Origin: Patescibacteria group bacterium
GTDB taxonomy: Bacteria > Patescibacteriota > UBA1384 > 2-12-FULL-50-11
Direction: 5' to 3'
Assembly: GCA_016861245.1 (NCBI GenBank)
Contig: BOKZ01000001.1
Span: 551,006 to 615,005 of the forward strand
Length of the DNA: 64,000 bases
Both the position numbers and the translations under genes were made by a program. The notes under the pieces were generated by a model, which saw only the letters and a program-made list of their open reading frames with translations, did not search any database and was not told the DNA's origin. This document shows, piece by piece, positions 1 through 21,357 of the stretch. How positions within the stretch are numbered: position 1 is the first letter of the stretch; each line of letters starts with the position of its first letter.

Positions 1-1
1 C

Positions 2-1966
2 TTTATCGAAACTCCGTACCGTAAAGTTGAAGTTAAAGATGGCAAAGCCAAAATCACTAGTAAAATTGATTATCTCGATGCCTATAACGAAGAGAAGTAC
101 ACGCTAGCGCCGTTCTCAACCAAAGTCGATAAAAACGGTTACATTACTGGCAATAAAATCGTCGCCCGACGCAACGGTGAGCCGGTTATCGAAGCTGTCA
201 CAAAAATTGATTACGTTGACATCTCACCGCAACAGGTCGTTTCGATCTCAACTGCCTTAATTCCGTTTGTCGAACACGACGAAGCTGTCCGAGCCTCGAT
301 GGGATCGAACATGCAACGCCAAGCCGTACCACTCGTTAAGCCGCAAGCTCCAATTATCGGAACAGGCTTAGAAGGCGCAGTTAAAGATTCTGGACAACTA
401 ATGGTAGCCGATGCTGATGGCGTGGTTACCTACGTTGACGGTGAGAAGATTACAATCAAAACCAAAAATGGCGATAAAACCTACGAACTCTTAAAGTTCG
501 TTCGCTCTAACCAAAGTACCTGTATTAACCAGCGACCAGCAGTGGCGCTCGGCGATAAAGTCAAGGCCGGTCAGGTGATCGCCGACTCAAGCGCATCTGA
601 CGACGGAGAATTAGCAATCGGTCAAAACGTCACCGTCGCTTACATGAGCTGGGGCGGTTACAACTACGAAGACGCTATTATTATTTCCGAACGCCTCGTT
701 AAAGAAGATCGCTTTACCTCGATTCACGTTGAGAAATACTCGTGTGAAGTCCGCGACACTAAACTCGGACCAGAGCTGGTAACGCGTGATATCCCGAACG
801 TCGGTGATGAAGCGCTGTCGAACCTTGACGAACAAGGCATTATCCGTATCGGCGCTGAAGTCGGTAGCGGTAGTATCTTAGTCGGAAAGATCACCCCACG
901 CGGTGAGACGGAACTAACTGCCGAAGAGAAACTACTTCGCGCGATTTTCGGCGAAAAAGCTAAAGATGTTAAAGACACTTCGCTTCGTTTGCCTCACGGT
1001 GAGCGCGGCAAAGTTGTCGAAGTAAAAGTTTTCTCCAAAGGTAACGGCGACGAACTACCAGCTGGTGTTTATCAGCAAATTGAAGTTTCGGTAGCACAGC
1101 TTCGAAAGATTACAGTTGGAGACAAGATGGCTGGCCGACACGGTAACAAAGGCGTTATCTCGCGAACTCTGCCGGAAGCCGACATGCCGTTCCTACCAGA
1201 CGGAACACCAGTTGATATTATCCTCAACCCGCTCGGTGTTATCTCGCGTATGAACCTTGGACAAATTCTTGAAACTCATCTCGGATGGGCTGCTGACAAG
1301 CTCAACTATAAGGTTGCTTCACCGGCGTTCTACGGAACACCTGTTACTGAAATTGAAAAAGAACTTAAAAAAGCCGAGCTACCCGATGACGGTAAGATTC
1401 AGCTTCGCGACGGACGTAACGGAACCGAGTACGATCAGCGAACAACGGTTGGAACTAAGTACGTTCTTAAGTTGATCCACCTAGTTGACGACAAGATGCA
1501 CGCTCGTTCAACTGGTCCGTACTCGATGGTTACGCAACAGCCGCTCGGTGGTAAGGCACAGTTCGGCGGTCAGCGATTCGGTGAAATGGAAGTGTGGGCG
1601 CTCGAAGCGTACGGCGCTGCTCACTCGCTCCAGGAAATCTTAACGATTAAATCCGACGACGTAATCGGACGCGCCAAAGCATACGAGGCGATTATTAAGG
1701 GCGAAGAAATTCAGAAACCTCAAATTCCAGCCTCGTTTGCAGTGTTAGTTCGCGAGCTTCAGAGCCTTTGCTTAAACGTCGAAGTAATCGAAACAGAAGA
1801 CAAATTGAAAGAAATAGAAACAACTCGTTCACTTCTACAGAGCCAGAGTACTCCAGCCCAGTCTATCGATGAGATCGTTAACGCTGAAGTATCTGAGGCT
1901 ACTGTTGAAACCGAAGAAGTTGAAGAACCAGCCGCTCAACCGGTTGCAGAGAAGGAGGACCAATAA
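2..1966 (+). CDS. rpoB: DNA-directed RNA polymerase beta subunit, C-terminal part (5' end lies outside the window)
   Basis: Frame open from window edge; ...[16 protein letters not shown]..., ...[32 protein letters not shown]... beta-subunit motifs; stop overlaps rpoC ATG (TAATG). Confidence 0.95.
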
Positions 1967-4900: not shown

Positions 4901-5817
4901 TGTCTGAAATCGCCGGTAAAGTCGTTATCCACGAAACCAAAGAGCGCTTGTATATCGACGTTGTCTCAGCCGATATTCCAACCGAGGAATTCGAGCTAAT
5001 CGAAGATTACACCGCTTCCGTAAAAGACAAAGATATCATCAAGGCCAAGCAAGCGATCGCAACCGCACCAGATAAAAAAGCGATGCGCGCTTCGATCGGC
5101 GGACGAGTCGATATTAAGGGTAAAAAGATTACTGTTACTTCGCTCGAACCAACCAAGGCGAGTTACCTGGTTTCAGGTGATGTTGGTCTTAAAGTTAAAA
5201 ACGGCGATACCGTTGAAGTCGGTCAGCAGCTCACCGAGGGTCACGTCGATCCGAACCAGTCGCTCGATCTGCGCGGCGTCAGCAAAACTCAGGACTACAT
5301 TATTAAAGAAGTCCAGAATATCTACTCGTCGCACGGCGCAGGCGTTAACGAAAAACACATCGAGATTATCGCTCGTTGTATGTTCTCGCGTGTTCGATTA
5401 ATCGACGGCGGCGACTCAACGCTTCTTCGCGGACAAGTTGTCAGCAAGCTCGAAATCGATCGAATGAACGAGAAACTTGCCAAAGAAGGCAAGCGACATA
5501 TTCAATACGAACAGATTATCTTGGGTATTACCCGCGCCTCGTTACAAACAAATAGCTTCCTATCAGCCGCTTCATTCCAAGAAACAACCCGCGTTTTGAT
5601 CGAAGCAGCTATTCAAGGCGCTGTCGATCCGCTTCGAGGTCTAAAAGAGAACGTTATCATCGGTAAACTTATCCCAGCCGGAACCGGATTTATGGATGAA
5701 GCCGATGTTCGTGTCATCAACGACGCTTACCAGGCCACAATTCCACAGCCGTTACCAGTTGGCATCGACACTACCGCCGAGGAGCAAACGGTTGAGCCAA
5801 AGAAGGAAAAAGAGTAA
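1966..5817 (+). CDS. rpoC: DNA-directed RNA polymerase beta' subunit
   Basis: 1283 aa; Zn-finger [37 protein letters not shown] catalytic motif. Confidence 0.96.
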
Positions 5818-5828
5818 ACTATCAACTA

Positions 5829-6242
5829 ATGCCAACAATCAATCAGTTAATTAGGCGCCCACGAAAACAGATTAAGGTGAAATCAAAATCACCAGCGATG
5901 CATCGTGGATTTAATAGTCTCAAAAACCGACCGGTCGAAATTACTAAAGGCCGGCCGTTTCTTCGTGGTGTTTGTACGAAAGTTACCACCACAACCCCTA
6001 AAAAACCGAACTCAGCCTTGCGAAAAATTGCTCGTGTTCGCTTAACCAGCGGCCAAGAAGTTACTGCTTACATTCCAGGAATCAAGCACAACCTTCAAGA
6101 GCACTCGTTGGTACTAATCCGTGGTGGTCGTGTTAAAGATTTGCCTGGTGTGAAATACCATATCGTTCGCGGTGTCTTAAACGCCGAAGGCGTTGAAAAC
6201 CGCAAACAAGGTCGCAGTAAGTACGGAGCTAAGAAAAAGTAA
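5829..6242 (+). CDS. rpsL: 30S ribosomal protein S12
   Basis: [13 protein letters not shown]... 137 aa; canonical position after rpoC. Confidence 0.95.
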
Positions 6243-6889: not shown

Positions 6890-8980
6890 ATGGCACGACA
6901 ATATCCACTCGAGCGCGTCCGTAATATCGGCATTATCGCTCACATCGACGCCGGTAAAACTACTGTTTCAGAGCGTATTCTGTTTTACACCGGTAAAAAC
7001 TACAAAATCGGCGAAGTGCATGAGGGTGCGGCCACGATGGACTGGATGGAACAAGAGCAAGAGCGCGGTATCACTATTACCGCCGCGGCTACTACTTGTT
7101 TTTGGAAAGATAACTCAATCAACATTATCGACACGCCGGGTCACATCGATTTTACTATCGAAGTTCAGCGCTCACTACGCGTGCTAGACGGTGCTGTTAC
7201 CGTTTTCGACGGCGTTGCGGGTGTAGAAGCGCAAAGCGAAACTGTTTGGCGACAAGCCGACAAGTACAAAGTTCCGCGAATTTGCTTTGTTAATAAACTC
7301 GATCGTATCGGCGCCGATTTTAAATTTGTCGTTAAAACGATCCAAGATCGTTTAGGCGCTAAAACCGCTGTGATTCAACTACCGATCGGTCAAGAAGACC
7401 AACTTAAAGGGGTGGTAGATTTACTCGAAAATAAAGCCGTTGTCTGGAAAGATGATTTAGGTAAGGATCCGATCGTCGAAGACATCCCGGCGGATATGAA
7501 AGACGAAGTCGAGGAGTATCGAAGTAAGCTCATCGAGCAGATTGCTGAAACAGACGAAGTACTTCTCGAAAAGTATTTTGCCGGCGAAGAGCTAACGGTA
7601 GCCGAGTTAAAGGCGGCGCTGCGAAAAGCTGTGATAGCTGTTCAAGTTTTCCCAGTTTTAGCTGGTTCGGCGCTTAAAAACAAAGGCGTTCAAACGATGC
7701 TTGATGCGGTTATCGACTACCTACCGAGTCCGCTCGACGTCCCGGCGCCGCACGGTACCGATGTTAAAGACCCAGAGAAAGTTATTGAGCGAAAAGTCGA
7801 CGACTCCGAGCCGTTCACAGCCCTGGCGTTTAAAGTTGCAACCGACCCGTTTGTTGGCTCGCTAACATTCTTCCGCGTTTATGCCGGCAAAATTACTGCC
7901 GGTTCGTATGTATTAAATAGTTCCAAAGGCGAGAAAGAGCGCGTTGGTCGCATTGTTCGTCTTCACGCTAACTCACGCGAAGACGTTACCGAAGTTTACG
8001 CCGGCGAAATCGCCGCCGCGGTTGGCTTGAAGAACTCAACAACAGGAGACACGCTTTGCGCCGAGAACGCTCCGATTATTCTCGAGCGAATTAACGTTCC
8101 GGAACCAGTTATTAAAATGTCGATCGAGCCAAAAACCAAGGCCGATCAAGAAAAAATGGGCGTGGCGCTACAACGCTTAGCTGCCGAGGACCCGACTCTT
8201 CGCTTAAGCCAAGACGAGACAACTAACCAAACCTTGATCGAAGGTATGGGCGAGCTTCACTTGGATATTATTGTCGATCGCATGCGACGTGAGTTTGGTG
8301 TTGAAGCTACGAAAGGTCAGCCGCAGGTTGCCTTCAAAGAAGCGATTACCCGAGTCGTTAAACAAGAAGGTAAGTACGTTAAACAAACCGGTGGTCGCGG
8401 TCAGTACGGCCACGTCTGGCTCGAGATCGAACCGCAAGAGCGCGGTAAGGGCTTTGAGTTTGTGAATAAAGTTGTCGGTGGCGCGATCCCACGCGAGTTT
8501 ATTTCTTCTGTCGAAAAAGGCGTTAAAGACTCTGTTTCCAAAGGTGTTATCGCCGGGTATCCGCTCGTTGACGTTAAAGTTACCGTTTACGATGGTTCGT
8601 ACCACGACGTCGACTCTTCAGACGTCGCGTTCCAAATCGCTGCTTCGATGGCGATGAAAGACGGCGTCAAAGCCGCCGGCCCGGTTCTACTTGAGCCAGT
8701 TATGAAAGTCGAAGTTACAACTCCAGAAGAGTTCTTTGGCTCGATCGTCGGCGATCTTAATAGTCGCCGTGGCCGCATTATGGGCTCTGAAGACCGCGGC
8801 AACTCTCGAGTAGTTGATGCAATGATTCCGCTCGCTGAGATGTTTGGTTACATCACCGATCTACGCGGCATGAGCCAAGGCCGAGCCAGCTTCACAATGG
8901 AATTTGACCATTACGAAGAGGTTCCACGCAATATCGCCGAGGGAATAATTGGCAAATCTGGTGCTAAAGCCGCTGCGTAA
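6890..8980 (+). CDS. fusA: elongation factor G
   Basis: 696 aa; [10 protein letters not shown]1 motif; RBS GGGAGA upstream. Confidence 0.96.
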
Positions 8981-8989
8981 CCACTGCCC

Positions 8990-9019
8990 TTGACCGGGAT
9001 ATGGTTTAAGCAGTAAAAT
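8990..9019 (+). promoter_or_regulatory. candidate sigma70 promoter for tuf (TTGACC-18-TAAAAT)
   Basis: -35/-10 hexamers read directly in fusA-tuf spacer. Confidence 0.3.
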
Positions 9020-9079
9020 GTATCAGAAACTAACTAATAATAAAAACATAAATATAAGGTTTAAGTAAAAGGAGTACGC

Positions 9080-10261
9080 ATGGCAGCAACATTCGAACGC
9101 ACAAAGCCGCACGTCAACGTTGGTACCATCGGTCACGTCGACCACGGTAAAACTACGTTAACGGCAGCTATCACAAACACACTCGCCGACAAGGGTTGGG
9201 CAGAGAAGAAGGCAGTCGATCAGATCGACAACGCCCCAGAGGAAAAGCAGCGCGGTATTACTATCGCGACGTATCACGTTGAGTACGAGTCAGAGAAACG
9301 ACACTACGCTCACGTCGACTGTCCGGGACACGCCGACTACGTTAAGAACATGATTACCGGTGCCGCTCAAATGGACGCCGCTATTCTCGTGGTGTCTGCT
9401 CCAGACGGTCCGATGCCACAAACTCGTGAGCACATTCTGCTTGCGAAGCAGGTTGGCGTTCCGTACATTGTTGTTTTCTTAAACAAGTGCGACCAAGTTT
9501 CTGATCCAGATCTTCTCGAGCTCGTTGAAGAAGAAGTTCGCGATCTTTTAAACAAGTACGAGTACCCAGGCAAAGACACACCAATTATTAAGGGCTCAGC
9601 TCTTAAGGCTATCGAAGGCGACGCCGACGCTAAGAAAGCAATCTTCGATCTTATCGAAGCGCTCGACTCTTACGTTCCAGAGCCAGTTCGCGAAACCGAC
9701 AAACCTTTCTTAATGCCAGTTGAAGACGTCTTCTCAATCAAGGGACGCGGCACAGTTGTTACCGGTCGTGTTGAGCGCGGTACCGTTAAAGTTGGTGAAG
9801 AAGTTGAAGTTGTCGGATTGAATGACACTAAGAAAACAGTTGTTACCGGAGTAGAAATGTTCCGCAAGCAGCTCGATTCTGGTCAAGCTGGCGATAACGT
9901 TGGTCTTCTTGTTCGTGGCTTAGAGCGCACAGATGTTGAGCGCGGCCAGGTTCTTTGTAAGCCAGGTTCGATTACTCCACACACCGAGTTCGAAGCTGAG
10001 TGTTACATCCTTAAAAAGGAAGAAGGCGGACGACACACACCGTTCACCAAGGGTTACAAGCCTCAGTTCTACTTCCGAACCACTGATGTGACCGGAGAAG
10101 TTGAGCTTCCAGGCGACGCCGAGATGGTTGTCCCAGGCGACACCACAACCTTCAAAGTTAAACTCATCCAGCCAATCGCGATGGAAGAGAAGCTCCGCTT
10201 CGCTATCCGCGAAGGTGGTAAGACGGTTGGTGCCGGAATTGTCACCAAAATTATCAAATAA
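9080..10261 (+). CDS. tuf: elongation factor Tu
   Basis: 393 aa; [18 protein letters not shown]; RBS AAAGGAG. Confidence 0.97.
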
Positions 10262-10283: not shown

Positions 10284-10616
10284 ATGGCCCAAAAGACCGC
10301 TCGCGAAGCTGCCAAATCCAGTATCCGCATCAAGCTTAAAGCGTACGATTACAGAGTAATTGATCGTTCCGCCAAGAAAATTATCGAGGCGGCCGAGCGG
10401 ACCGGTGCCATTATCGCCGGACCTATTCCGTTACCAACCGAGAAATCGATGGTAACGGTCAATCGCTCCACGTTTGTTCACAAGGATGCTCGTGAACAGT
10501 TCGAAATCCGTATTCACAAACGCATCATCGACGTCTTGGATCCAAATCCAAAAACCCTTGATGCCTTGATGAACCTCGATCTTCCAGCTGGTGTCGACAT
10601 CGAAATCAAGACATAA
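10284..10616 (+). CDS. rpsJ: 30S ribosomal protein S10
   Basis: 110 aa; IRIKLKAYD... S10 signature. Confidence 0.95.
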
Positions 10617-10665: not shown

Positions 10666-10702
10666 GTAATATAAACCATAAAAGTAGTAAAATACTGAGG
10701 AA

Positions 10703-13213
10703 ATGAAGGAAGCAAAGTCGCGAATAAAAATAAACAAACTGCTTGAACAAGCGGGCTGGCGATTTTTTGATAATGAAAAAGGACAAGCAAACATTTTGCT
10801 TGAACCGAATGTAAAACTTACCCAAAAAGATATTGACGCTTTTGGCGAGGATTTTGAATGTACCAAAGGCGGATTTATTGATTTTCTACTGCTTGATGAG
10901 CGAGGATTTCCATTTGTCGTTTTGGAAGCGAAAAAAGAGGAAAAAGACCCGCTCGACGGCAAGGAACAAGCGCGCCGCTATGCTAAATCTCAAAATGCCC
11001 GCTTTGTTTTGCTTTCAAACGGCAATCTTCACTATTTTTGGGATTTAGAGCGAGGCAATCCGGAAATTATCACAGAATTTCCGACACAAGAATCACTCTT
11101 GCACCGCTTGGAATTTACGCCGGACAACAAACGCCTCGCCGACAACAAGGTTGAAGAGGATTACATTGCCACGACGCAAAATCCAAATTTCAAAGATGAT
11201 CCTCGTTACCAAGATGAAGCGAAAAGAGCGCAATTTCTCTACGACGAGGGTTTGCGCATTTTGCGTCCGTATCAGCTTAAAGCTATCCAAGCCCTGCAAA
11301 GAAGTGCGGAAGCCGGAAACGACCGTTTTCTTTTTGAAATGGCAACTGGCACAGGCAAAACACTTGTATCTGGTGCCGTCATCAAACTATTTTTACGAAC
11401 CGGAAGTGCAAAAAGGATTTTGTTTTTGGTGGATCGCTTGGAACTTGAAGATCAGGCATACAAAAATTTCGTCCGTTACCTTAAAAACGACTACACGGCT
11501 GTTGTCTACAAGCAAAATCGCGATGATTGGAAAAAAGCGGACATCGTTATTTCAACCGTTCAAAGTCTTGCCTCGCAAGCCAAATACAAGAAACTTTTTT
11601 CGCCGACAGATTTTGATCTTATTATTTCCGACGAAGCGCACCGCTCAATCAGCGGAAACAGCCGCGCTGTCTTTGAATATTTTGTTGGCTATAAACTCGG
11701 ACTTACTGCAACGCCAAAAGATTATCTAAAAAATGTTGATCCGCAAAAACTTTCGTCAAAAGACCCGCGAGCGTGGGAGCGCAGACAACTTTTGGACACT
11801 TACACAACCTTTGGCTGTCCGAGCGGCGAACCAACATTCAGATACACTCTGCTTGATGGAGTAAAAGATGGCTACCTCATCAATCCTATCGCTGTTGACG
11901 CGCGCACCGACATCACAACAGAGCTTCTTTCGGAAAAGGGTTATGCCGTTATGGTGGAAAACGAGGAAGGCGAAGAAACCGAAGAAACTTTTTTCCAACG
12001 CGATTTTGAGAAAAAATTCTTTTCAGACAAAACGAATCAGGTGTTTTGCAAATCCATTGTTGAAAACGCCTTGAAAGACCCGATAAGCGGCGAGATGGGT
12101 AAAACGCTTATTTTTTGCGTGAGCCAAAAACACGCTTCAAAAATTACACAAACCTTAAACCAGATGGCGCACCAAGTATGGCCAGACAAATATAATTCTG
12201 ATTTTGCCGTTCAAATTACCTCAAACATTCAGGATTCCCAGCAAATGACGATCAATTTCGCCAACAATAATCTCAACGGACACACGAAATTTTTACCCGG
12301 CTACAAATCAAGCAAAACAAGGGTATGCGTTACCGTCGGCATGATGACGACCGGCTATGATTGTGAAGATATTTTGAACCTTGCCCTACTGCGTCCCGTC
12401 TTTTCGCCAACGGATTTTGTTCAGATGAAAGGACGCGGCACTCGCAAGTTCTTTTTTGAATACAAAAATGGAGACGGCGAAGTGCGAAAAGTAAATAAAG
12501 ATAAATTTAAGTTTTTCGATTTCTTCGCCAACTTTGAATACTTTGAAGAAAAGTTTGATTACGACGAGGCACTTCGCCTGCCGATTATCAAAAAGGGTGG
12601 AACCGGCGAGGGCGAAGGAGTGGGCGTTAATATTGATGAATTTGAAATTTTCGATCCCGATAAAATCAAGCAGCTGACCGAGATACCAATCGGCACCGAA
12701 GGAATGAAGGTTGACCGCAAGTTGTTTGAAGAAGCGAGAAAGAAAATCCAGAATGACGAACAAGTAAAAGAAGCAGTTAATCAAGAGCAATGGGAAAAAG
12801 CGGTAAAAATCTTGCGTGACAAATACGAAGACAAACCGCAATTATTTCTGAATCTTGAAAAAATACGCAAAAGCGAAAACCTTGACCGCCGTTTGTCGTG
12901 GCGTGAATTTTTGGAGCGGGTATTCGGCTTGATTGACGCTTTCAAATCCAAAGATGAAAAACTAGAAGAAGAAGTTGAGAAGTTTATCTCAATCTACAAA
13001 CCCGAAAGTAAATATGTGCCGTATATCAGAAATTACTTGAAGGCGTATGTTGCAGATGATCGTTTCCGCGAGATTATAAACAGCAAACATTTTGCCGAGC
13101 TGAATGTGTATCCGGGATTTTCCATGCAGGAATTTAAGGCACTCAACGGCTGGCGCGATACCGTGCCGGAATATGTAAAAGATTATGTGCCAGTCAATCA
13201 ATACATGAAATAA
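10703..13213 (+). CDS. hsdR: type I restriction enzyme R subunit (N-terminal PD-(D/E)xK nuclease + SF2 DEAH helicase)
   Basis: 836 aa; FIDFLLLDERGFPFVVLEAKK nuclease core; helicase motifs EMATGTGKT (I), ISDEAHRS (II), LTATP (III), QMKGRGTR (VI); tightly followed by hsdM. Confidence 0.85.
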   Translation: MKEAKSRIKINKLLEQAGWRFFDNEKGQANILLEPNVKLTQKDIDAFGEDFECTKGGFIDFLLLDERGFPFVVLEAKKEEKDPLDGKEQARRYAKSQNARFVLLSNGNLHYFWDLERGNPEIITEFPTQESLLHRLEFTPDNKRLADNKVEEDYIATTQNPNFKDDPRYQDEAKRAQFLYDEGLRILRPYQLKAIQALQRSAEAGNDRFLFEMATGTGKTLVSGAVIKLFLRTGSAKRILFLVDRLELEDQAYKNFVRYLKNDYTAVVYKQNRDDWKKADIVISTVQSLASQAKYKKLFSPTDFDLIISDEAHRSISGNSRAVFEYFVGYKLGLTATPKDYLKNVDPQKLSSKDPRAWERRQLLDTYTTFGCPSGEPTFRYTLLDGVKDGYLINPIAVDARTDITTELLSEKGYAVMVENEEGEETEETFFQRDFEKKFFSDKTNQVFCKSIVENALKDPISGEMGKTLIFCVSQKHASKITQTLNQMAHQVWPDKYNSDFAVQITSNIQDSQQMTINFANNNLNGHTKFLPGYKSSKTRVCVTVGMMTTGYDCEDILNLALLRPVFSPTDFVQMKGRGTRKFFFEYKNGDGEVRKVNKDKFKFFDFFANFEYFEEKFDYDEALRLPIIKKGGTGEGEGVGVNIDEFEIFDPDKIKQLTEIPIGTEGMKVDRKLFEEARKKIQNDEQVKEAVNQEQWEKAVKILRDKYEDKPQLFLNLEKIRKSENLDRRLSWREFLERVFGLIDAFKSKDEKLEEEVEKFISIYKPESKYVPYIRNYLKAYVADDRFREIINSKHFAELNVYPGFSMQEFKALNGWRDTVPEYVKDYVPVNQYMK

Positions 13214-13215
13214 CT

Positions 13216-15111
13216 ATGCTTGATCAACTCACAAAACGAAAAATTGACTCGGCCCGGCAAATTCTTGTCGGCAAAGTGCCTGACCCAAAGGCGCAAGTGG
13301 AGCAGATCACCACCGCGCTGGTTTACAAGTTCATGGATGATATGGACAAGGAATCGCAGGAGCTTGGCGGACAAACGCGATTTTTTGCAAACGGTTTTGA
13401 AAAATACAGCTGGACCAAACTCTTGGACAAACGGCTTTCCGGTGCCGAACGGCTTGACCTGTATGTGCAGGCCATTACGAATATGTCCAAGAATCCGCAC
13501 ATCCCCCAGCTTTTCAAAGATATTTTTAAGGGCGCGGCGTTGCCCTATAACGACGCTCAAACATTAAATTTGTTTCTGAAAGAAATTGAAGGATTTACTT
13601 TTGACCACAGCGAGGATTTGGGCGACGCCTATGAATACCTGCTGAATGTCGTCGGCACATCGGGGGAAGCCGGACAATTTCGCACGCCGCGCCACATCAT
13701 TGATTTTATCGTGGAAGTTGTTGCGCCAAAGAAAAATGAAACTATTTTAGACCCTGCTTGTGGCACGGCCGGATTTTTGATTTCCGCTTACAAACATATT
13801 TTACGCCAGCACGACGGCAAGCACGACCAAACGGGCGAGCCGACGAGCGCGGAAAAACGCCTCTCACCGGAAGAAAAGCAAAAGATGATGAGCAATTTTG
13901 TGGGCTACGATATTGATCCGGGAATGATGAGAATTGCCATCGTGAATATGTATTTGCACCATTTCCCCAATCCGAAAATATACGAATACGACACGCTGAC
14001 GTATGAGGATCGCTGGGACGATACCTTTGACGTCATTCTCGCCAATCCGCCGTTTATGACACCAAAGGGCGGGATTCGTCCCCACAAGCGTTTTTCCGTG
14101 CAAGCCACGCGCAGTGAAGTGTTGTTCGTTGATTATATTTTGGAGCACCTCAACATCAAAGGACGAGCCGGTATTATTGTCCCCGAAGGAGTAATTTTCA
14201 GAAATGATTCGGCATATAAGGAATTGCGGAAGAAATTGGTTGAAGACGGTTTGTATGCCGTTGTTTCCTTGCCGCAAGGTGTTTTTGCCAAACCCGGCGG
14301 CAAAGGAAATGTAAAAACGAGTATTCTCTTTTTTGATAATCAGCTTGCCAAAAAGAGCAATGAAATCCTGTTCGTAAAAGTAGAGAACGACGGCTTTGAT
14401 CTCGGCGCACAACGGCGAAAGATTGATAAAGATGACCTGCCGGAAGCTTTGGCTGTTTTGGATGCGTGGAAGAATGGCAAGAAATACGAGAGCGGCCTCG
14501 CTCTTTGGATAAAAAAAGAAAAAATCTCTGAAAGTGGAAATTACAGATTATCAGGCGAGTTTTATCGGGAAAATGTCAAAAGATTGCACCAGAAATGGCC
14601 GATGGTGGAATTGGGACAAGTTTTGGATTACGAACAGCCGACAAAATATATTGTTGAATCAGTTGACTACGATGACAAATATACTATTCCAGTTTTGACG
14701 GCGGGCAAGACATTTATTTTGGGATATACGAACGAAAAAAACGGGATATTCCCCCAAGAAAAATTGCCGGTGATTATTTTTGACGATTTCACTACTGCCT
14801 CAAAGTTTGTTGATTTCCCGTTCAAAGTAAAATCGTCAGCAATGAAGATTTTACTTGCGGATAAAAGTAAGACAAATATCAAGTTCCTTTTTCACTCAAT
14901 GCAGAGAATTGCTTTTACCGTCAACGAACACAAACGATATTGGATTTCCGAATACTCCAAAATAAAAATCCCGCTTCCTCCTTTGGACGTTCAAAACGAA
15001 ATTGTGGAGCAAATTGAAACAAAGGAAAATTCCATCAAGCACGCCAAAGAAATTATCAAAAATCTAGAGAGAGAGAGAGACGCTATTTTGGTCAGTCGCT
15101 TAGAAAATTAA
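13216..15111 (+). CDS. hsdM: type I R-M N6-adenine methyltransferase fused in frame to a half specificity subunit (HsdM-TRD1-conserved region)
   Basis: 631 aa; res 1-452 HsdM (FRTPRHII, LDPACGTAGFL motif I, LANPPF motif IV, C-terminal ISESGNYRLSGEFY signature); res 460-631 typical HsdS TRD start WPMVELGQVL... and conserved helix LPPLDVQNEIVEQIE...LERER. Confidence 0.85.
   Translation: MLDQLTKRKIDSARQILVGKVPDPKAQVEQITTALVYKFMDDMDKESQELGGQTRFFANGFEKYSWTKLLDKRLSGAERLDLYVQAITNMSKNPHIPQLFKDIFKGAALPYNDAQTLNLFLKEIEGFTFDHSEDLGDAYEYLLNVVGTSGEAGQFRTPRHIIDFIVEVVAPKKNETILDPACGTAGFLISAYKHILRQHDGKHDQTGEPTSAEKRLSPEEKQKMMSNFVGYDIDPGMMRIAIVNMYLHHFPNPKIYEYDTLTYEDRWDDTFDVILANPPFMTPKGGIRPHKRFSVQATRSEVLFVDYILEHLNIKGRAGIIVPEGVIFRNDSAYKELRKKLVEDGLYAVVSLPQGVFAKPGGKGNVKTSILFFDNQLAKKSNEILFVKVENDGFDLGAQRRKIDKDDLPEALAVLDAWKNGKKYESGLALWIKKEKISESGNYRLSGEFYRENVKRLHQKWPMVELGQVLDYEQPTKYIVESVDYDDKYTIPVLTAGKTFILGYTNEKNGIFPQEKLPVIIFDDFTTASKFVDFPFKVKSSAMKILLADKSKTNIKFLFHSMQRIAFTVNEHKRYWISEYSKIKIPLPPLDVQNEIVEQIETKENSIKHAKEIIKNLERERDAILVSRLEN
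15066..15080 (+). repeat. (AG)7 dinucleotide simple-sequence repeat inside the 3' end of hsdM-S, at the TRD1/TRD2 junction
   Basis: agagagagagagaga read directly; encodes LERER in frame 1; downstream hsdS' frame opens immediately after it. Confidence 0.9.
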
Positions 15112-15140
15112 AAGATGTTGAATGGGTAAAACTTGGCGAC

Positions 15141-15671
15141 GTGTGCAAAACAACATCGGGCGGTACGCCTCTAAAGCACAAGCGAGAATATTACGAAAAT
15201 GGCACAATTCCGTGGCTAAAGAGTGGTGAGGTTGATCAAGGTTTGATCTACAAATCAGAAGAAATGATAACAGAAAAAGGACTAAAAAATTCATCAGCAA
15301 AGATTTTCCCCGTAAATACTGTTTTGGTGGCAATGTATGGAGCAACGGCAGGAAAGGTTGGATTACTTAAATTTGAATCAACAACCAATCAGGCGGTCTG
15401 TGGGATTTTGCCGAACGACAAATTTATTCCAGAATTTTTGTATATGTATTTGAGAACAAAGACAGGCGAAATGGTGAAATTAAGCGGTGGTGGCGCACAG
15501 CCAAATATTTCCCAAACAATTATAAAGGCACTTGAAATTCCACTACCATCGATTGAAATCCAAAAACAGCTCGTCGCCGAAGCGGAAAAGGAAGAAGAAA
15601 TCATCGCCTCTAACCGCCGCCTCGTTGACCTTATGCAGCAAAAAATTGACGAGGCCCTATCTGATATTTAG
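15141..15671 (+). CDS. hsdS: type I R-M specificity subunit, second half (TRD2 + distal conserved region)
   Basis: GTG-start ORF in track; frame is actually open from 15069 (..LRKLKDVEWVKLGDVCKTTSGGTP = canonical HsdS TRD start) with no in-frame ATG; C-terminal LPSIEIQKQLVAEAEKEEEII... conserved coiled coil. Confidence 0.7.
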   Translation: MCKTTSGGTPLKHKREYYENGTIPWLKSGEVDQGLIYKSEEMITEKGLKNSSAKIFPVNTVLVAMYGATAGKVGLLKFESTTNQAVCGILPNDKFIPEFLYMYLRTKTGEMVKLSGGGAQPNISQTIIKALEIPLPSIEIQKQLVAEAEKEEEIIASNRRLVDLMQQKIDEALSDI

Positions 15672-15673
15672 CT

Positions 15674-18004
15674 ATGTTTGAGAAAGTATCAAAACTTAAA
15701 AAATTCGGGATATTCCGCGATTTCTCTTGGGGCGCAGACACACCAGACCTCGCGCGCTTTAACTTGATTTACGGCTGGAATAAGAGCGGGAAAACAACTT
15801 TTTCGCGCGCTTTTGTCGCTTGCGAGAAGAAAACAACGGAATTTGTCCAGTATCCCAAGGACGGCGAATTTGAAATAAAAACGAACGGCGGTTCAGCAAT
15901 TAACCATTCAAATTGCCATGGATGCACTCGGCAAATAAAGGTTTTTAATAAAGATTTTATTGAGGACAATGTTTCTTTTGATCCCACGAATCCAAGCCAA
16001 CCAATCGTCTATGTCAGCGAAGAAGACATCGAAAGCAGTAAAAAGTTGAAAGAGTTACAGGGTAAGGTTACGCCTTTGTCAGAAAAATACGAATCGGCCC
16101 AAAAGGATCGTCAAAAAAGTGAAAAAGCAGAAGATGATTTTAGAAAATCAACCGCCCGCACAATAAAAGATATTGTTGGCAATTTGAAAGTTAATGACAA
16201 ATACCGAGATTACGACAAAGGAAGCGTTAAAACAACGATTGAAAACGTCGGGATTGATAAATTTTCCAAACTTTCAGATGAAGAATTTGAAAAGAAAAAG
16301 AAATTTATAGGCGGCGATCCCCTTAACAAGCAAACCTCACCCCAACAATATGGGTTCTCTTTTTCTTATGACGGGAAAAGTTTGAAAAGTTTTTCCGAAG
16401 TATCTAGCGAGATTTCAAATATCCTCAAACGAAAAATTGTTGCCGAGACCATTGACCGCTTCAAGGACGATCCGGAACTAAATAAGTGGGCGCAACATGG
16501 TTTTGAATTGCACAAAACAAAAGATGAAAAGAAAAAATGCCTGTTTTGCCAAAATGAGTTTTCGGCCGGTTTCCTTAATTCGTTGTCAAAGCATTTCAGT
16601 AATGATTATGAGAAGCTACAAGGCGAGATAAGCTCTTTTATATCGGGCCTAGAAAATTTGAAGCGGGAAAAAATTACGGAAAAGAATCAAGGGCTTTATT
16701 CAGATTTCCAAGACAAATATAAAAATAGTGCAAAGGAGCTGAACAAAATTATCAACGAATTGATTGCGTGGGTGGATGAAGCGGTAAAAAAGCTGAAAGA
16801 AAAGTACGACAATCCGCTCTCGGATGTAAGTGATCCCGAATCGCCAAATGATTTTCCCGCTCAATACGATAAGAAAATTGACGAAATAAACGCGGTAATA
16901 AAAGAACACAATACCAAAGTAGATAATCACGAGCAGGAAGTCGGAAAAGCAAAGGAAGAATTGGAAAAACACCTTATTGCGGTTGCAATAGACGAGCAGG
17001 AATATTCAAAGTTAAAATCAGAGTTTGATAAAAGTATTGAAGCGGAAAAAGAGGCGAAAAAAGCAGTTGATGATAATACTCAAGAGATTTCCAAGCTGGA
17101 AAAAGAAACCTCAAACATAGGAAAGGCGGTTCAGAAAATAAATAAGCACCTCGAGGAATTTTTTGGTAGAAAGGAAATTCTGCTTGAACTGGACGATTCG
17201 AAAAAGGGCTACATTATCAAGCGCGACGGAGATGTGGCGCACAATCTTAGCGAAGGCGAAAAGAACGCTATCGCCTTTTCATACTTTATCGTCAAGACAC
17301 AGGAAAAAGGATTTAAGATCAAGGAAGGAATAATCGTAATTGACGATCCGATTTCCAGCTTTGATTCAAACTTTATTTACCACTGCTTTTCTCTGATAAA
17401 AAATCATTTCAAAGACGCAAAGCAGTTAATCGTTTCCACGCATAACTTTGAATTTTTCAATCTCGTCAAAGATTGGTTTGAGCAGAAAAATCGTAAAGTT
17501 GAAAGCGATAATAAGAAAATCGCTAATGAAGCAGACAAGAAGCCGGTTCCATGCGAGTTTTTCATGGTTGAAAATATCATCGAAAATGATAAACGATGTG
17601 CTTCGATTGTTCCGCTTGAAGAAACTTTGCGAAAATTCAAATCAGAATATCACTTCTTGTTTTCAAGATTGAATAAGTTTATTACAGAAGGTACGCCGGA
17701 CTACGCCGATTTTTACACTATCGGAAATATTGCGCGACGGTTTTTAGAGATTTACATAAATTTCAAAATACCGACAACAGGTGATTTGAAAAGTAGGGTT
17801 GACCAGCTTGATACAAAAACCGTCAGCGAAACTGAAAAAGATAAGGTGTATAAACTTATTCAAGAATTTTCGCACGGACTAGATCCCGCAAGCACAATCG
17901 AGCACAAAGATAAAAGTGAGATTCAAAATGCGATTAAAGTTTTAATGAAAATGGTTGAGGAATCAGACAAGAAGCATTTTGAATCTTTGCAAAGCAATCT
18001 ATGA
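15674..18004 (+). CDS. RloC-like ABC/Rad50-type ATPase with coiled-coil zinc hook and C-terminal putative anticodon-nuclease domain
   Basis: 776 aa; Walker A GWNKSGKTT, signature LSEGEK, Walker B IIVIDDPISSFD, H-loop VSTHN; about 400-aa K/E-rich coiled-coil insert with CxxC at res 81-84 and 289-292; after H-loop a 190-aa domain with ARRFLE (R-x3-E) and downstream SHG; 2 bp after hsdS'. Confidence 0.5.
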   Translation: MFEKVSKLKKFGIFRDFSWGADTPDLARFNLIYGWNKSGKTTFSRAFVACEKKTTEFVQYPKDGEFEIKTNGGSAINHSNCHGCTRQIKVFNKDFIEDNVSFDPTNPSQPIVYVSEEDIESSKKLKELQGKVTPLSEKYESAQKDRQKSEKAEDDFRKSTARTIKDIVGNLKVNDKYRDYDKGSVKTTIENVGIDKFSKLSDEEFEKKKKFIGGDPLNKQTSPQQYGFSFSYDGKSLKSFSEVSSEISNILKRKIVAETIDRFKDDPELNKWAQHGFELHKTKDEKKKCLFCQNEFSAGFLNSLSKHFSNDYEKLQGEISSFISGLENLKREKITEKNQGLYSDFQDKYKNSAKELNKIINELIAWVDEAVKKLKEKYDNPLSDVSDPESPNDFPAQYDKKIDEINAVIKEHNTKVDNHEQEVGKAKEELEKHLIAVAIDEQEYSKLKSEFDKSIEAEKEAKKAVDDNTQEISKLEKETSNIGKAVQKINKHLEEFFGRKEILLELDDSKKGYIIKRDGDVAHNLSEGEKNAIAFSYFIVKTQEKGFKIKEGIIVIDDPISSFDSNFIYHCFSLIKNHFKDAKQLIVSTHNFEFFNLVKDWFEQKNRKVESDNKKIANEADKKPVPCEFFMVENIIENDKRCASIVPLEETLRKFKSEYHFLFSRLNKFITEGTPDYADFYTIGNIARRFLEIYINFKIPTTGDLKSRVDQLDTKTVSETEKDKVYKLIQEFSHGLDPASTIEHKDKSEIQNAIKVLMKMVEESDKKHFESLQSNL

Positions 18005-18068
18005 CCTCCACCACCCAATTTGAGGTCCCGCCGTCCGAAAAAATCGCTAGTTTTGCTAGACTGAAACA

Positions 18069-18224
18069 ATGAATTGGGGTTGGTTTACCTCGAGCGGAGT
18101 CGAGTGGATGATAGTATTTGCAATTCTGGCTGTCGGGTTAGGAATAATTCTGGCCATGGCGATGAAAAATCCCGCACCAAATCTCTTTTCACCCAACCAA
18201 CCAAAGTACCTACCGTTTAGATAC
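18069..18224 (+). CDS. possible small membrane protein (51 aa)
   Basis: MNWGWFTSSGVEWMIVFAILAVGLGIILAMAM...; one TM helix; no strong RBS. Confidence 0.2.
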
Positions 18225-18324
18225 ATCAACCCTCAACACATCTAAGGCACCATATACGCTATAACTCATATTCTGTTTTTAACTAATTAGCATATGCTTT
18301 TTATTTACTGGTACAATAAGCCAA

Positions 18325-19008
18325 ATGTTCAAACTCTCCCCATCGGATTTTGCGTATATGTACCAGGACTGCAAGCTTTGCTATTGCCTGAAAATTAAGC
18401 ACAAGGTCAAACACCCAAGCATGCCGATGCCGGGGGTATTTTCGACGATGAACTCGATTATGCAAGGGGATATCGTCGGTAAAGATCTGCGCGACATCTC
18501 CCCAGATCTGCCGGTAGGGAAAGTGGTTAAACAAGAGGGTTTTGTAAAATCCAAGATGATCGACGGCACGTCGGTGTATATCGGCGGCAAATACGATCTT
18601 CTAGTGGAATTGCCGGATGGGAGCTATATGATTGTGGATTTGAAGATCTCCAAGCCCAGCGACGAAAAGAGCGATATGTACAAAAGCCAGCTTTGGAGCT
18701 ACAAATACGCCCTGGAAAATCCGGAGAGCGGCGAGCCGGTAAATATCTCAAAATTAGCCTTGCTAATTTTTTATCCGGAGTCTGTGGTATTCGAAAACGG
18801 TGTGGCGAAACTTGCTTTTCCGCCACAATGGATAGAAGTAGAATATAATCACAACGAATTTTTAGAATTTATGAAAGAAGTGGATACGTTGCTGGCCGGC
18901 CCGTTACCTGCCGAAAACGAGAATTGCCAGTGGTGTAAGTATCGTCACACCGGCGAACTGCTTACACATAGCACTTCAGAAAACGTGGCTGAAACAAGCC
19001 CATTTTAA
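18325..19008 (+). CDS. PD-(D/E)xK nuclease of the RecB/Cas4-like family with a 4-Cys (Fe-S-type) cluster
   Basis: 227 aa; N-terminal CKLCYC, motif II GKYDLLVEL, motif III IVDLKISK, QxxxY (KSQLWSYKY), C-terminal CQWCKY. Confidence 0.45.
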   Translation: MFKLSPSDFAYMYQDCKLCYCLKIKHKVKHPSMPMPGVFSTMNSIMQGDIVGKDLRDISPDLPVGKVVKQEGFVKSKMIDGTSVYIGGKYDLLVELPDGSYMIVDLKISKPSDEKSDMYKSQLWSYKYALENPESGEPVNISKLALLIFYPESVVFENGVAKLAFPPQWIEVEYNHNEFLEFMKEVDTLLAGPLPAENENCQWCKYRHTGELLTHSTSENVAETSPF

Positions 19009-19032
19009 AAATTATGTTATAAAAACACGGAA

Positions 19033-19434
19033 ATGAGTAAGCCATCTAGTCCAGTAAGTAGTGTAACAGAGGAAATTCAAAGTCGGCTTCACAGGTTACT
19101 ACACGAAGCAGCGCAACAAAGTTCAGACAGTAGCTTCCAACAGTGCGTGAATAATCACTTAATTAATTACATTCAAAGTCGAAGCGGTTGGAAATCAATT
19201 GGAGAAAACGGTTTTTCCTACAAAAATGGGATCAAAGTTTTTGTTGATTCTTATCGATCTTCAAACGCTTTCGAGAATGTAGTGAATATAGGGAAAGAGA
19301 TACTGCGCGCTGAGCTTGAGGATTTGATTAAAGAATCGGCCAACAAAGGTGATGAAATAAGACGTGCGCTAAAAGAATTCGAGAGTAAAGATTGGGATTT
19401 TGCGTTTATTAGGCGGAAAATAAGCGAAGAATGA
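19033..19434 (+). CDS. hypothetical protein (133 aa)
   Basis: ORF with no recognisable motif, same strand and close spacing to neighbours. Confidence 0.45.
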   Translation: MSKPSSPVSSVTEEIQSRLHRLLHEAAQQSSDSSFQQCVNNHLINYIQSRSGWKSIGENGFSYKNGIKVFVDSYRSSNAFENVVNIGKEILRAELEDLIKESANKGDEIRRALKEFESKDWDFAFIRRKISEE

Positions 19435-19464
19435 GTCGTTCGGGTATGTTCCTGTAAGCAGACG

Positions 19465-20718
19465 ATGAAAATACTTCCAAACCGTAAACAATTATTATCA
19501 ACGGTGGTGAAAACTCTGTTAGCGCTGTCTGCCGTAGTTGCTGTGTTAATTTCTTTTACGTATTCGATAGTTTATACCGTTATCGGTGCGCTAATAGTTG
19601 TTGGATATATTGTGTATCGAAATTTCAACTTTAAACCCATCCAGTTCAATTTTTATAAAGTAAACGGTTGGTTTGCTAGAAACTTATTGTTTGTAATCCC
19701 GATAATCGTAGTGTTACTACTGGCTAACATCTCGTTGTTTGTGTTTGGGTACCTGAAATCGAATAAAGAGGTTGTAGTTTGTACTGAAGCAGACGTAAAA
19801 AACGCCGCTAAATCCGTTGTACTAATTGAGGGAGAAGACGGGACAGGGTCGGGATTTTTTGTTGATAGTAATTACATTGTAACTAATAACCATGTAATTG
19901 ATCACAATACGATTACAAAAATTCAGTCTGATAACGGCGATATAACTGTCGGCTCAAGGGTGGTCGCTACTGATTCGTTGAGAGACATCGCCTTAATTGA
20001 GGTTGTGAACTTTTTGGAAGTACCGAAACTAACACAATCTGAAAAACCAGCTGACGTTCTAAACGAGGTCTACGCGATTGGCTATCCGTTTGGTCGAAAT
20101 TTAACTATTTCAAGAGGTATAGTATCGGCAATAACTAAAGATGATTACGACGATCGCCAGTACATTCAAACAGATGCCGCCATAATCCCAGGCAATTCAG
20201 GCGGACCGCTCGTGAATAAATGCGGGGAGGTGATTGGTATGAATACTCAAACACTACGAGGTCAAGAAAATCTAGGATACGCAATTGAGTACTCGCAGTT
20301 AAGTACAAGAATTGCCAGCATGTTAGATGCTGCAAAATCGGCAACAATTCAGGAAATCGAGCAGAATTACCCATCTGAGCAAGCTGAGGTTGTAGCGAAA
20401 TACTACTCAACACTGAGCGCCGGCCAGCTAGAAACTGCATACGACTACTATTCTTTTGCACGGAAAGCAAAGCTGCCGTTTGAGAACTGGAAAACTGGGC
20501 TGGAACGGACGATATTTATCCGGTTGGTATCTGTTGAGCAGACGCAGAAAAATAACACTATAAGAGTACATTTTTACGCAACCGAGACTTCTAAAGAAGA
20601 TGCCTGGGAATGGAAAACGGGAGAATTTGAGGGAACTTGGACGTTACTGCGTGAAGACGGGTTGTGGAAAATGAACGAATCCAATATTAAGGATATAACG
20701 AAACCAAACGCGACGTAA
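19465..20718 (+). CDS. membrane-anchored trypsin-like (S1/DegP-family) serine protease with C-terminal NTF2/SnoaL-like domain
   Basis: 417 aa; 3 N-terminal TM helices; catalytic triad contexts TNNHVIDH (His), DIALIEV (Asp), GNSGGPL (Ser). Confidence 0.75.
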   Translation: MKILPNRKQLLSTVVKTLLALSAVVAVLISFTYSIVYTVIGALIVVGYIVYRNFNFKPIQFNFYKVNGWFARNLLFVIPIIVVLLLANISLFVFGYLKSNKEVVVCTEADVKNAAKSVVLIEGEDGTGSGFFVDSNYIVTNNHVIDHNTITKIQSDNGDITVGSRVVATDSLRDIALIEVVNFLEVPKLTQSEKPADVLNEVYAIGYPFGRNLTISRGIVSAITKDDYDDRQYIQTDAAIIPGNSGGPLVNKCGEVIGMNTQTLRGQENLGYAIEYSQLSTRIASMLDAAKSATIQEIEQNYPSEQAEVVAKYYSTLSAGQLETAYDYYSFARKAKLPFENWKTGLERTIFIRLVSVEQTQKNNTIRVHFYATETSKEDAWEWKTGEFEGTWTLLREDGLWKMNESNIKDITKPNAT

Positions 20719-20719
20719 T

Positions 20720-21357
20720 TCTTTAATATCTTGCCTGAAGATACTTCAAAGAGTATTATTTCCGTGTCCTGGCTTCGGTCAGGCGAATCCTACATGGAGG
20801 CACAAAAGATGAATGGTTCGAACGTTCTTGAACGCACTCACGCTGAGCCTAGCTCTTCGTTGGTGCGAGACATCTATTCGATTCAACCCGGGTCGACGGA
20901 ACTGCTCAACGAGGGGCAGGCCCGAAAGCGACTCACCGACACCCATACGATGCGAGCCCGAGAGCTCTGCCCTGCCCAGGGCAAGAGAGCGGCCGGTGGA
21001 TTCCTCCAGCGAATCTTCGGCTAACGGGCGACCAACGACGTGGGAGTTGTTCGTCGCTTTGAAGCGACAGTTCGAGAGACCGAAGAAACGTTTCCCGATG
21101 AATTTTCCGTGGGTTTGTGGATGTGGCAAAGCCGGCTTCCCCGGCTGTAAAGACCGCGAGCACTTCTGCGAGCGCGTCTATCTAGCACTACTCGACTACC
21201 ACCAACATCAGGAAACGAAATCCCGGAATCTCTGCTACTTCGTTGACGGCGGCGAACAGCTTCTGCGTGTCGACCAATTCAGTGCCAGGCGTATGCAGCT
21301 TCTCGAGGCAGACCTCGAGAAAGCTGAAACGATCTTGCGCCGAATGCTATCCGACAA
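20720..21357 (+). other. GC-rich, hairpin-dense block without a convincing ORF (candidate structured RNA or degraded foreign DNA); possible 89-aa Cys-rich ORF 21098..21367
   Basis: GC clearly higher than flanks; ORFs open in several frames on both strands with R/S-rich low-complexity translations; many local palindromes (GTTCGAAC, GAACGTTC, GCCCT-GCCC-AGGGC, AGCCGG-CTTCC-CCGGCT). Confidence 0.3.

Follow-up and report, generated by a model that had tools for sequence, protein, structure and literature searches.

Type I restriction-modification (R-M) systems normally keep the methyltransferase subunit M and the specificity subunit S as separate polypeptides. In a 64,000 bp stretch of DNA from a Patescibacteria group bacterium (assembly GCA_016861245.1, contig BOKZ01000001.1, positions 551,006–615,005; this whole stretch is called the window below), a single open reading frame (ORF), hsdMS, encodes an HsdM methyltransferase that continues without a stop into one HsdS target-recognition domain (TRD). 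An earlier note, made from the letters of the sequence, had proposed that this could be an under-described architectural variant. The question raised by the locus is whether the 631-residue fusion is a fixed architecture or one of several states of the same gene. Comparison with relatives favoured the second answer: it is likely that hsdMS contains a simple-repeat phase switch of the NgoAV type and works with a separate HsdR encoded upstream. Coordinates are those of the window, and the genes described from hsdR onward (10,703–20,718) lie on the + strand.

The Fused hsdMS Gene

The hsdMS ORF extended from position 13,216 to 15,111 and encoded 631 aa with no internal stop. The HsdM part, residues 1–452 (13,216–14,571), corresponded to a gamma-class N6-adenine methyltransferase, with the Pfam family N6_Mtase over residues 133–452 (E 4e-52) and the PADLOC Type I methyltransferase profile (MTase_I, E 3e-91) over residues 3–473. 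HsdM_N was visible at residues 7–105 as a weak, sub-threshold match. The motifs quoted in the earlier note were present and conserved, the consensus of the alignment being KIAESGDYNLSGERY, then KWPMVELG. The S-adenosylmethionine (SAM) motif DPACGTAGFL and the NPPF motif were invariant in the alignment of homologs. In the PDB, the sequence and fold matches of this part were Type I M subunits (5YBB, 2OKC and EcoKI). The chain then continued into TRD1, residues 460–586 approximately (14,593–14,973), and into the central conserved coiled-coil helix, CR1, residues 590–630 (14,983–15,105). Methylase_S matched residues 460–619 (E 4e-8, Pfam), and the PADLOC Type I specificity profiles spanned residues 455–622. 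An AlphaFold2 model of the 631-aa protein, built with 60 homologs (mean predicted local distance difference test score, pLDDT, of 81.8), displayed the M body, a low-confidence linker of three residues (453–455), a beta-rich domain at 463–586 and a single long helix at 590–630, which ran on through the frameshift-encoded tail described below. The CR1 segment IPLPPL..Q.EIV was conserved in the alignment. Ahead of the TRD, only short helices were modelled (434–439 and 447–450), with no long M-tail helix between M and TRD1. The natural M1S1/2 fusion of Vibrio vulnificus (PDB 7EEW) has the same single-chain layout, with M followed by one TRD and a CR helix, and 7EEW_A was the top full-length Foldseek match of the model.

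The frame from M to S was unbroken in essentially all of the best 120 protein homologs and in about 160 related loci, so that the fusion is real and not a sequencing artefact at the M/S junction. A missed stop or a frameshift separating M and S had been named beforehand as what would undo the idea of a fusion; the M/S junction turned out to be conserved, and the variable junction lies between the two halves of S. A single reading frame covered M and S, both here and across the best 120 homologs, unlike the separate M and S of Type I systems, and no free hsdM or hsdS gene was found in the 64-kb window.

The separate restriction subunit was confirmed. The hsdR gene (10,703–13,213, 836 aa) ended 2 nt ahead of the start codon of hsdMS. 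Its product matched ResIII (E 4e-39), HSDR_N_2 and DEAD in Pfam and REase_I (E 7e-57) in PADLOC, and its translation showed the D..EAK nuclease, GTGKT and DEAH motifs; NCBIfam matches to the EcoAI/FtnUII-type R subunit were partial and below cutoff. An R subunit of 836–839 aa was likewise found upstream of MS in the related loci L162–L166, L180 and L181. The predicted products, an R subunit with a nuclease and a superfamily 2 (SF2) translocase and an HsdM-type gamma N6-adenine methyltransferase, are those of a Type I system.

An AG Repeat ahead of a Silent Second TRD

The 631-aa ORF ends at position 15,111 because of a simple-sequence repeat (SSR). The tract, (AG)7A at 15,066–15,080 (ctAGAGAGAGAGAGAGAcgc), encodes ERER and is the candidate switch point. 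Its (AG)7 portion at 15,066–15,079 shifts the frame 10 codons ahead of the stop, giving the short-state tail DAILVSRLEN and the stop codon (15,079–15,111). In the -1 frame, an out-of-frame cassette made of a linker, TRD2 and CR2 was found at 15,081–15,671 (Methylase_S, E 2e-25). Methylase_S thus matched the locus twice, in the hsdMS frame and again in the -1 frame, giving the two TRDs of a Type I specificity subunit. The PDB matches of TRD2 were 1YF2 and the C-terminal TRD of EcoR124. The TRD2 frame was open back to the tract and read RYFGQSLRKLKDVEWVKLGDVCKTTSGGTP, a complete TRD N-terminus without a start codon of its own. The 176-aa ORF present in the ORF list (15,141–15,671) corresponded to the 3' part of the TRD2-CR2 cassette; its GTG, the only possible start, lies within the TRD, past the conserved N-terminal strand EWVKLGDV, and no obvious ribosome-binding site was seen for it. 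Removal of one AG unit joined both frames into an 817-aa protein with M and two TRDs. The tract is a non-triplet repeat of at least five dinucleotide units inside an ORF; it sits between TRD1 and TRD2, and its length toggles between full-length and truncated S, as in the SSR phase-variable hsdS genes. The earlier note had overlooked the (AG)7 tract that ends the ORF, the complete second TRD and coiled coil downstream, and the adjoining PDC-S06/AAA_13 gene. Loss of an A in the A-run at 15,104–15,107, which gives ...SRLEKLKDVEW, was considered as another repair of the frame and rejected, because the long homologs enter the TRD2 frame right after the tract (ERER-RYFGQSLRKLKDVEW), which is equivalent to removal of one AG unit.

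Tract Length and Protein Form among Relatives

A total of 160 loci was fetched and compared with the window, and the 27 loci with tract and linker in common were used as an unbiased set. AG units were counted after anchoring on the flanks, since the differing flanks of four loci (L003, L031, L009 and L092) change the in-frame number and make raw counts without context misleading. The lengths of the homologs were bimodal, about 800–830 aa and about 625–650 aa. In the long homologs, LERER-RYFGQSLRKLKDVEW was followed by a second TRD and a second coiled-coil region, and the AlphaFold2 model of one of them (P0005, 815 aa, 96% identical, pLDDT 81.8) comprised M, TRD1, CR1, TRD2 and CR2. The short form ended in ERER-DAILVSRLE, then N, S or K and the stop codon, in the window and at least 12 others (13 of the best 120 protein matches). 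Another short form, in the third frame, ended in ERE-TLFWPVT and was seen in one case. The gene was in frame in 22 of the 27 tract-bearing loci, with a purine tract of 12–13 nt, which was exactly (AG)6A in 18 of these 22. Two extra nucleotides were present in the five others (the window, L020, L056, L092 and L101), all of which stopped 10 codons past the tract; TRD2 was open over 153–196 codons in these loci, with the exception of L056, which reached the contig end. No other disruption was observed in the tract-bearing genes, over approximately 2.4 kb of each.

Three close relatives with about 88% nucleotide identity represented the three frames: (AG)6 with a protein of 815 aa (L164), (AG)7 with 639 aa (L162) and, in the third frame, (AG)5 with 627 aa (L163). 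For three more short proteins picked from the match list, the gene was again longer by 2 nt, with TRD2-CR2 intact but in the other frame. Among the three, L165 belonged to a second linker lineage and had (AG)8, compared to (AG)7 in its in-frame relative L003.

The nearest comparison was provided by two assemblies of a sister strain, obtained from separate sequencing runs (L180 from SRR8466082 and L181 from SRR13871838). They were found by fetching dozens of contigs with an EF-Tu the same or nearly the same as that of the source, whose nearest named relatives by EF-Tu were Candidatus Berkelbacteria (about 92% identity). EF-Tu assigned the source to Patescibacteria, and the best match in a scan of species-representative genomes was 70% identical. 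Each was about 95% identical to the window across hsdMS. Aligned with each other over 10,182 bp, they showed 0 mismatches and a single gap, corresponding to one AG unit. L180 had (AG)6 and one gene of 820 aa, whereas L181 had (AG)7 and two genes of 631 and 183 aa. This pair is a tract-length polymorphism on an otherwise identical background. Tract length therefore varies among identical or near-identical sequences, both in this pair and, as (AG)5, (AG)6 and (AG)7, among the close relatives. The proposal of a stable, under-described architecture was not supported by these observations: the in-frame form of the lineage is M followed by TRD1-CR1-TRD2-CR2 (about 800–830 aa), and the 631-aa protein is its (AG)7 state. 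The earlier interpretation is supported as to the covalent M-TRD unit with a separate HsdR; a fixed architecture is not supported, L180 and L181 differing by a single AG unit.

Maintenance of the Tract and of the Silent Cassette

A frameshift in the specificity region resembles early pseudogenisation, and the tract might be nothing but a mutable spot, in which case the (AG)7 gene would be broken, its 631-aa product inactive or poorly methylating, and the system dying. Other disruptions do exist in a few related loci (L047, L057/L059, L065, L066 and L077), and the island carrying the R-M locus occupies a hotspot with rapid gene turnover. Such a non-adaptive decay is nevertheless unlikely. In the window and in every locus with one additional unit, hsdR, the M domain, TRD1 and TRD2 were intact. 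States with one unit more outnumbered states with one unit less by 10 to 1, and in the AlphaFold2 model the tail produced by the additional unit continues the CR1 helix. Natural single-TRD fusions that are stable, with nothing downstream, also exist (L004, L014, L016, L018, L042, L069 and L071), and the engineered equivalent is active.

The perfect tract was furthermore kept against codon bias. The three codons before CGN were identical in 28 of 30 loci, with a third-position diversity of 0, compared to 0.43 upstream and 0.27 downstream in the flanks of the tract. GAG represented 26% of the Glu codons and AGA 24% of the Arg codons in the tract-bearing genes; both being minority codons, the succession GAG AGA GAG AGA would be expected for ERER about 0.4% of the time (about 0.004). 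The tract was the only dinucleotide repeat of at least five units in the 64-kb window, where no long homopolymer was found. In the frame with one additional unit, all 30 loci examined shared the tail pattern and a stop (TAA, TAG or TGA) placed 10 codons past the tract, and this invariant stop position is suggestive.

The silent cassette itself also appeared to be preserved. Between the TRD2 of L165, a short form, and that of L002/L084, which are long, the synonymous divergence dS was 0.35 and the nonsynonymous divergence dN 0.02 (dN/dS 0.06). As judged from these substitutions, in the sole informative pair, the silent TRD2 is under purifying selection, which argues against decay. The TRD2 type of the window is read in frame in P0048, the M backbone of which is 98% identical. 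The comparisons of the window's own TRD2 were saturated at synonymous sites against every relative (proportion of synonymous differences, pS, of 0.73–0.88 and ratio of nonsynonymous to synonymous proportions, pN/pS, of about 0.2–0.27), and dN/dS was dropped for this segment.

Other Readings of the Two Frames

A fixed split architecture was also considered, with TRD2-CR2 translated on its own (176 aa, starting at GTG 15,141) and joining M-TRD1-CR1 in a heteromer of full asymmetric specificity. The downstream piece was called as a gene in several loci, an in-frame ATG was present near the start of TRD2 in L162, and co-expressed half-S fragments of EcoDXXI restore wild-type activity according to a review (PMC3874165). 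The arrangement seems rather improbable, given that GTG 15,141 is placed inside the TRD without an obvious ribosome-binding site, that most relatives have one continuous ORF, and that the split is a tract state in the L180/L181 pair. The heteromer would, in addition, carry only one M.

It is very unlikely that the seventh unit is an error in a tract that is really (AG)6. Repeats are error-prone on some platforms and every sequence used here is an assembly, but (AG)7 was also present in a separately assembled contig (L161, Logan DRR258782), 100% identical to the window over 4,988 bp and possibly built from the same reads. The state with one additional unit recurred in 10 loci from the JGI, ENA, NCBI and Logan pipelines, and at least 13 independent protein clusters shared the same ending. 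In another Logan assembly, of the same species (L189, DRR335824, positions 7811–9901), the EF-G gene was split into ORFs of 454 and 232 aa, probably by an assembly or sequencing error; single frameshifts in such assemblies therefore need independent support.

Programmed ribosomal frameshifting or transcriptional slippage, which would yield the long and short proteins from one allele and provide extra M domains for the long form, is hardly credible and was rejected even though two protein-like frames overlap just past the repeat, as no slippery heptamer or stimulatory structure was found at the tract, dinucleotide tracts are not known to be sites of RNA polymerase slippage, and the DNA-level variation seen in L180/L181 is enough to explain both forms.

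A Model of the Switch and Its Predicted Recognition Sites

We propose that the locus is a two-gene Type I-like R-M system, made of hsdR and the fused hsdMS, with a phase-variable specificity region. In this model, slipped-strand changes in the (AG)n tract, at the end of the first coiled-coil region, would set the reading frame. With (AG)6, a single polypeptide M-TRD1-CR1-TRD2-CR2 would be made, of 817 aa for the window allele. With (AG)7, as in the window, the product would be the 631-aa M-TRD1-CR1, and TRD2-CR2 would be intact but silent. By analogy with the known half-S fusions, two short-state molecules would pair via CR1 into an (M-half S)2 methyltransferase core equivalent to M2S1; this core would recruit HsdR and read a symmetric bipartite site made of two TRD1 half-sites. 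The long state would read an asymmetric site, one TRD1 half-site and one TRD2 half-site. Since the sites would differ between states, switching would alter which sequences are methylated and restricted. The dimerisation, the activity with HsdR and the sites are inferred, as are the reversibility of the change within a population and an adaptive role. A site can be predicted for the short state, because TRD1 matched the N-terminal TRD of EcoR124 HsdS, which reads GAA, with 59% identity (E 1e-43); the half-S dimer EcoR124I-NT reads GAAN7TTC (PMC2877798). The predicted short-state site is GAA(N~7)TTC, in which the length of the spacer is a guess.

Several points weigh against the phase switch. 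The conserved tail of the short form, with the pattern D-x-I-L...L-E-x and the stop, might have indicated dual-coding selection. This was rejected, because the wobble positions of the long frame are the second positions of the short frame and IL follows from a conserved YF; the tail is largely a by-product of the long frame and not independent evidence of selection on the short protein. The mode of dimerisation could differ from that of 7EEW, in which a long M-tail helix reportedly helps to form the pivot of the dimer; the AlphaFold2 model of the 631-aa protein appears to lack such a helix. All the sequences are metagenome assemblies, from which the tract lengths were taken. Finally, in the long form two TRDs share a single M, and a free hsdM is absent from the window. 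To this last objection it can be answered that engineered MS fusions methylate both strands without free M (PMC6158711).

More tentatively, selection may have kept the (AG)n tract, with its nucleotides conserved in distant hsdMS lineages, as a contingency locus by which Patescibacteria would switch stochastically between asymmetric and palindromic specificity, with an M:TRD ratio going from 1:2 to 1:1; we lean slightly away from so broad a view, which includes the possibility that the translation of the neighbouring PDC-S06 gene is uncoupled. Patescibacteria are ultra-small, probably episymbiotic bacteria. If this were true, the candidate phyla radiation (CPR) would have its first documented case of a phase-variable R-M system, or "phasevarion", driven by a repeat. 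If the switch operates, uncultivated bacteria with reduced genomes would diversify both defence and methylation specificity by a 2-bp slippage, without extra hsdS cassettes or recombinases.

The Neighbouring Genes and the Defence Hotspot

The gene following hsdMS (15,674–18,004, 776 aa) encodes an ATPase that is an accessory defence candidate, and its ATG lies 2 nt past the stop of the long hsdMS frame. The protein matched AAA_13 (Pfam, E 2e-133) and PDC-S06 (PADLOC, E 1e-174); it also matched PrrC weakly and contained the CxxC motif CLFC. We take it to be reminiscent of the RloC/PrrC anticodon nucleases accompanying Type I systems. A PDC-S06 gene also follows the long-form MS in L164, and an AAA_13 gene follows MS in L166. 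The expression of PDC-S06 could be affected by the switch, because translation upstream of it ends about 560 nt earlier in the short state.

The R-M locus was found in an island of approximately 10 kb (10,669–20,749), right past the terminator hairpin of rpsJ (10,284–10,616). The island separates rpsJ from the other genes of the S10 ribosomal operon, and the conserved genes preceding rplC (26,590) are located beyond it. The same site was empty in same-species assemblies (L171, L172 and L187). In further assemblies of this species it held a different cargo: an Eco47II-type Type II R-M system (L170 and L176), an EcoO109I-type R-M system with SduA (L183), classical three-gene Type I systems (L182, L184 and L186) or other genes (L185 and L188). 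This ribosomal-protein gene cluster contains, at that site, a hotspot for defence islands. On its right-hand side, a PD-(D/E)XK (Cas4-like) nuclease (18,325–19,008) and a 133-aa protein with no family match (19,033–19,434) were present. They recurred whatever the cargo (L170, L176, L180–L184 and L186) and may be part of the hotspot and not of any particular system. A trypsin-like protease of 417 aa (19,465–20,718), with an apparently hydrophobic N-terminal region as judged by eye, followed; in PADLOC its protease domain matched those of the defence proteins RT-Protease_XI and LmuA, and it was also present in L180 and L181. A second case of this R-M module adjoining the str/S10 translation-gene cluster, at a different insertion point, was observed in a further relative, L167 (ENA k141_774944, 1–6025), where a short-state hsdMS and then an AAA_15/AAA_21 ATPase lay directly upstream of tuf.

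Distribution and Annotation of the Family

The search for homologous M-S fusions showed that they are very common. The protein search gave at least 8,000 matches, the top ones being almost all N6_Mtase plus Methylase_S, and more than 560 matches were confirmed in each DNA collection searched. The taxa among the matches were Patescibacteria, Proteobacteria, Planctomycetota, Bacteroidota, Chloroflexota and archaea, and a full-length match was found in 56 plasmid records. Plasmids of cultured organisms also carry the R + MS module. On an E. coli IncF plasmid (L168, NZ_CP116482.1), a DEAD/DEAH box helicase family protein (~849 aa) was followed by a 677-aa N-6 DNA methylase with one TRD and then by a TrlF-family ATPase. 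On a Paracoccus plasmid (L169, NZ_CP025432.1), a DEAD/DEAH box helicase family protein of ~849 aa was followed by an 858-aa N-6 DNA methylase with two TRDs. The R + MS module was not annotated as Type I in either plasmid. Because pipelines split these genes or mislabel them as "N-6 DNA methylase" and small "S", neither the two-gene R + MS family nor its phase states can be recognised in annotation as it stands.

Shuffling of TRDs across lineages was observed in several loci (L165, L002, L084, L008, L031, L037 and L077). Besides the 59% identity of the window's TRD1 to the N-terminal TRD of EcoR124 from E. coli, the TRD2 type of the window recurred at 67–75% identity in genes of a different linker lineage, and was the first TRD in L037. 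In L077, only a CR2 remnant was left right past the stop, as if a recombination between CR1 and CR2 had deleted TRD2.

A literature search that excluded REBASE and much of the subscription literature, and is weak evidence for this reason, returned papers neither on natural fusions of M to a two-TRD S beside a separate R nor on Patescibacteria whose R-M systems vary in phase through SSRs. Within the literature searched, an (AG)n switch in a fused hsdMS, conserved in its nucleotides across lineages and with both states isogenic in a CPR bacterium, appears undescribed.

Comparison with Known Systems

SSRs between the TRDs of hsdS lead to full-length or truncated HsdS of differing specificity, as shown experimentally for NgoAV, and were found in 7.8% of the REBASE hsdS genes in a survey that required at least five units for a dinucleotide repeat (Atack et al., PMC7383803). 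The hsdMS locus resembles NgoAV of Neisseria gonorrhoeae in having a non-triplet repeat between TRD1-CR1 and TRD2, the length of which decides between a two-TRD and a one-TRD product. In the NgoAV type, the truncated form dimerises and reads a palindrome-like site. The locus differs in its repeat, (AG)n in place of poly-G or a tetranucleotide unit, and in that hsdM and hsdS are fused in the gene that switches, so that the M:TRD ratio would go from 1:2 to 1:1 as well. A further difference lies in the hosts, which belong to uncultivated Patescibacteria and to other lineages from the environment and are known here from sequences.

The earlier note had reasoned that a covalent M-S' unit would enforce a 1:1 ratio of M to TRD, and this logic is real. 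In the natural M1S1/2 fusion of V. vulnificus YJ016 (7EEW), the "minimal intact methyltransferase", two fusion proteins pair and recapitulate M2S1, according to an article (PMC12429846) that cites Seo et al. 2022 (PMID 35337914). Like the short form of hsdMS, this protein joins HsdM, one TRD and a CR helix in a single chain and belongs to a Type I operon. The identity was ~20% in the Foldseek alignment, the sequence match covered the M core, and the Vibrio protein is not reported as a repeat-switch state with a hidden second TRD.

The nearest equivalents of the two states are laboratory constructs, made from systems with separate M and S. For S. aureus CC398-1, an engineered MSfus methylates ACCN5RTGA and restricts phage with HsdR, and an M-half-Sfus dimerises, methylates the palindrome ACCN5GGT and also restricts phage with HsdR (PMC6158711). 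These are exactly the two architectures toggled by the tract, the full fusion having an asymmetric site and the half fusion a palindrome. An MS fusion of EcoKI with hsdR was sufficient for restriction in vivo, whereas the purified fusion required added free M in vitro (PMC3510504). Among natural intermediates, the passages of both articles (PMC6158711, PMC3510504) retrieved by term searches name only Types ISP, IIB and IIG, and they mention no natural equivalent that keeps R separate. MSfus and M-half-Sfus were used to argue how Type I systems evolve toward Type II-like forms. The locus would provide natural counterparts of MSfus and M-half-Sfus, both from one gene.

The short form is also comparable to EcoR124I-NT (Type IC), an N-terminal TRD with the central CR which dimerises, although the M, R and CR regions of the window are not of the IC family and its HsdR resembles the EcoAI-type R only partially. 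With the Type IIB, IIG and ISP enzymes (BcgI, BsaXI, MmeI and LlaGI), hsdMS shares a gamma methyltransferase with TRD blocks and a covalent junction between M and specificity, and weaker Foldseek matches to BsaXI and BpuSI were obtained. These enzymes carry their nuclease, in some cases along with a motor, on the same chain as M, whereas the MS protein starts with an HsdM-type N-terminus and the SF2-translocase R is encoded separately upstream. M-S fusions are widespread, and the M-half-S fusion has already been described and engineered; what the window contributes is a switch of an already known type, placed in a fused gene that is less familiar.

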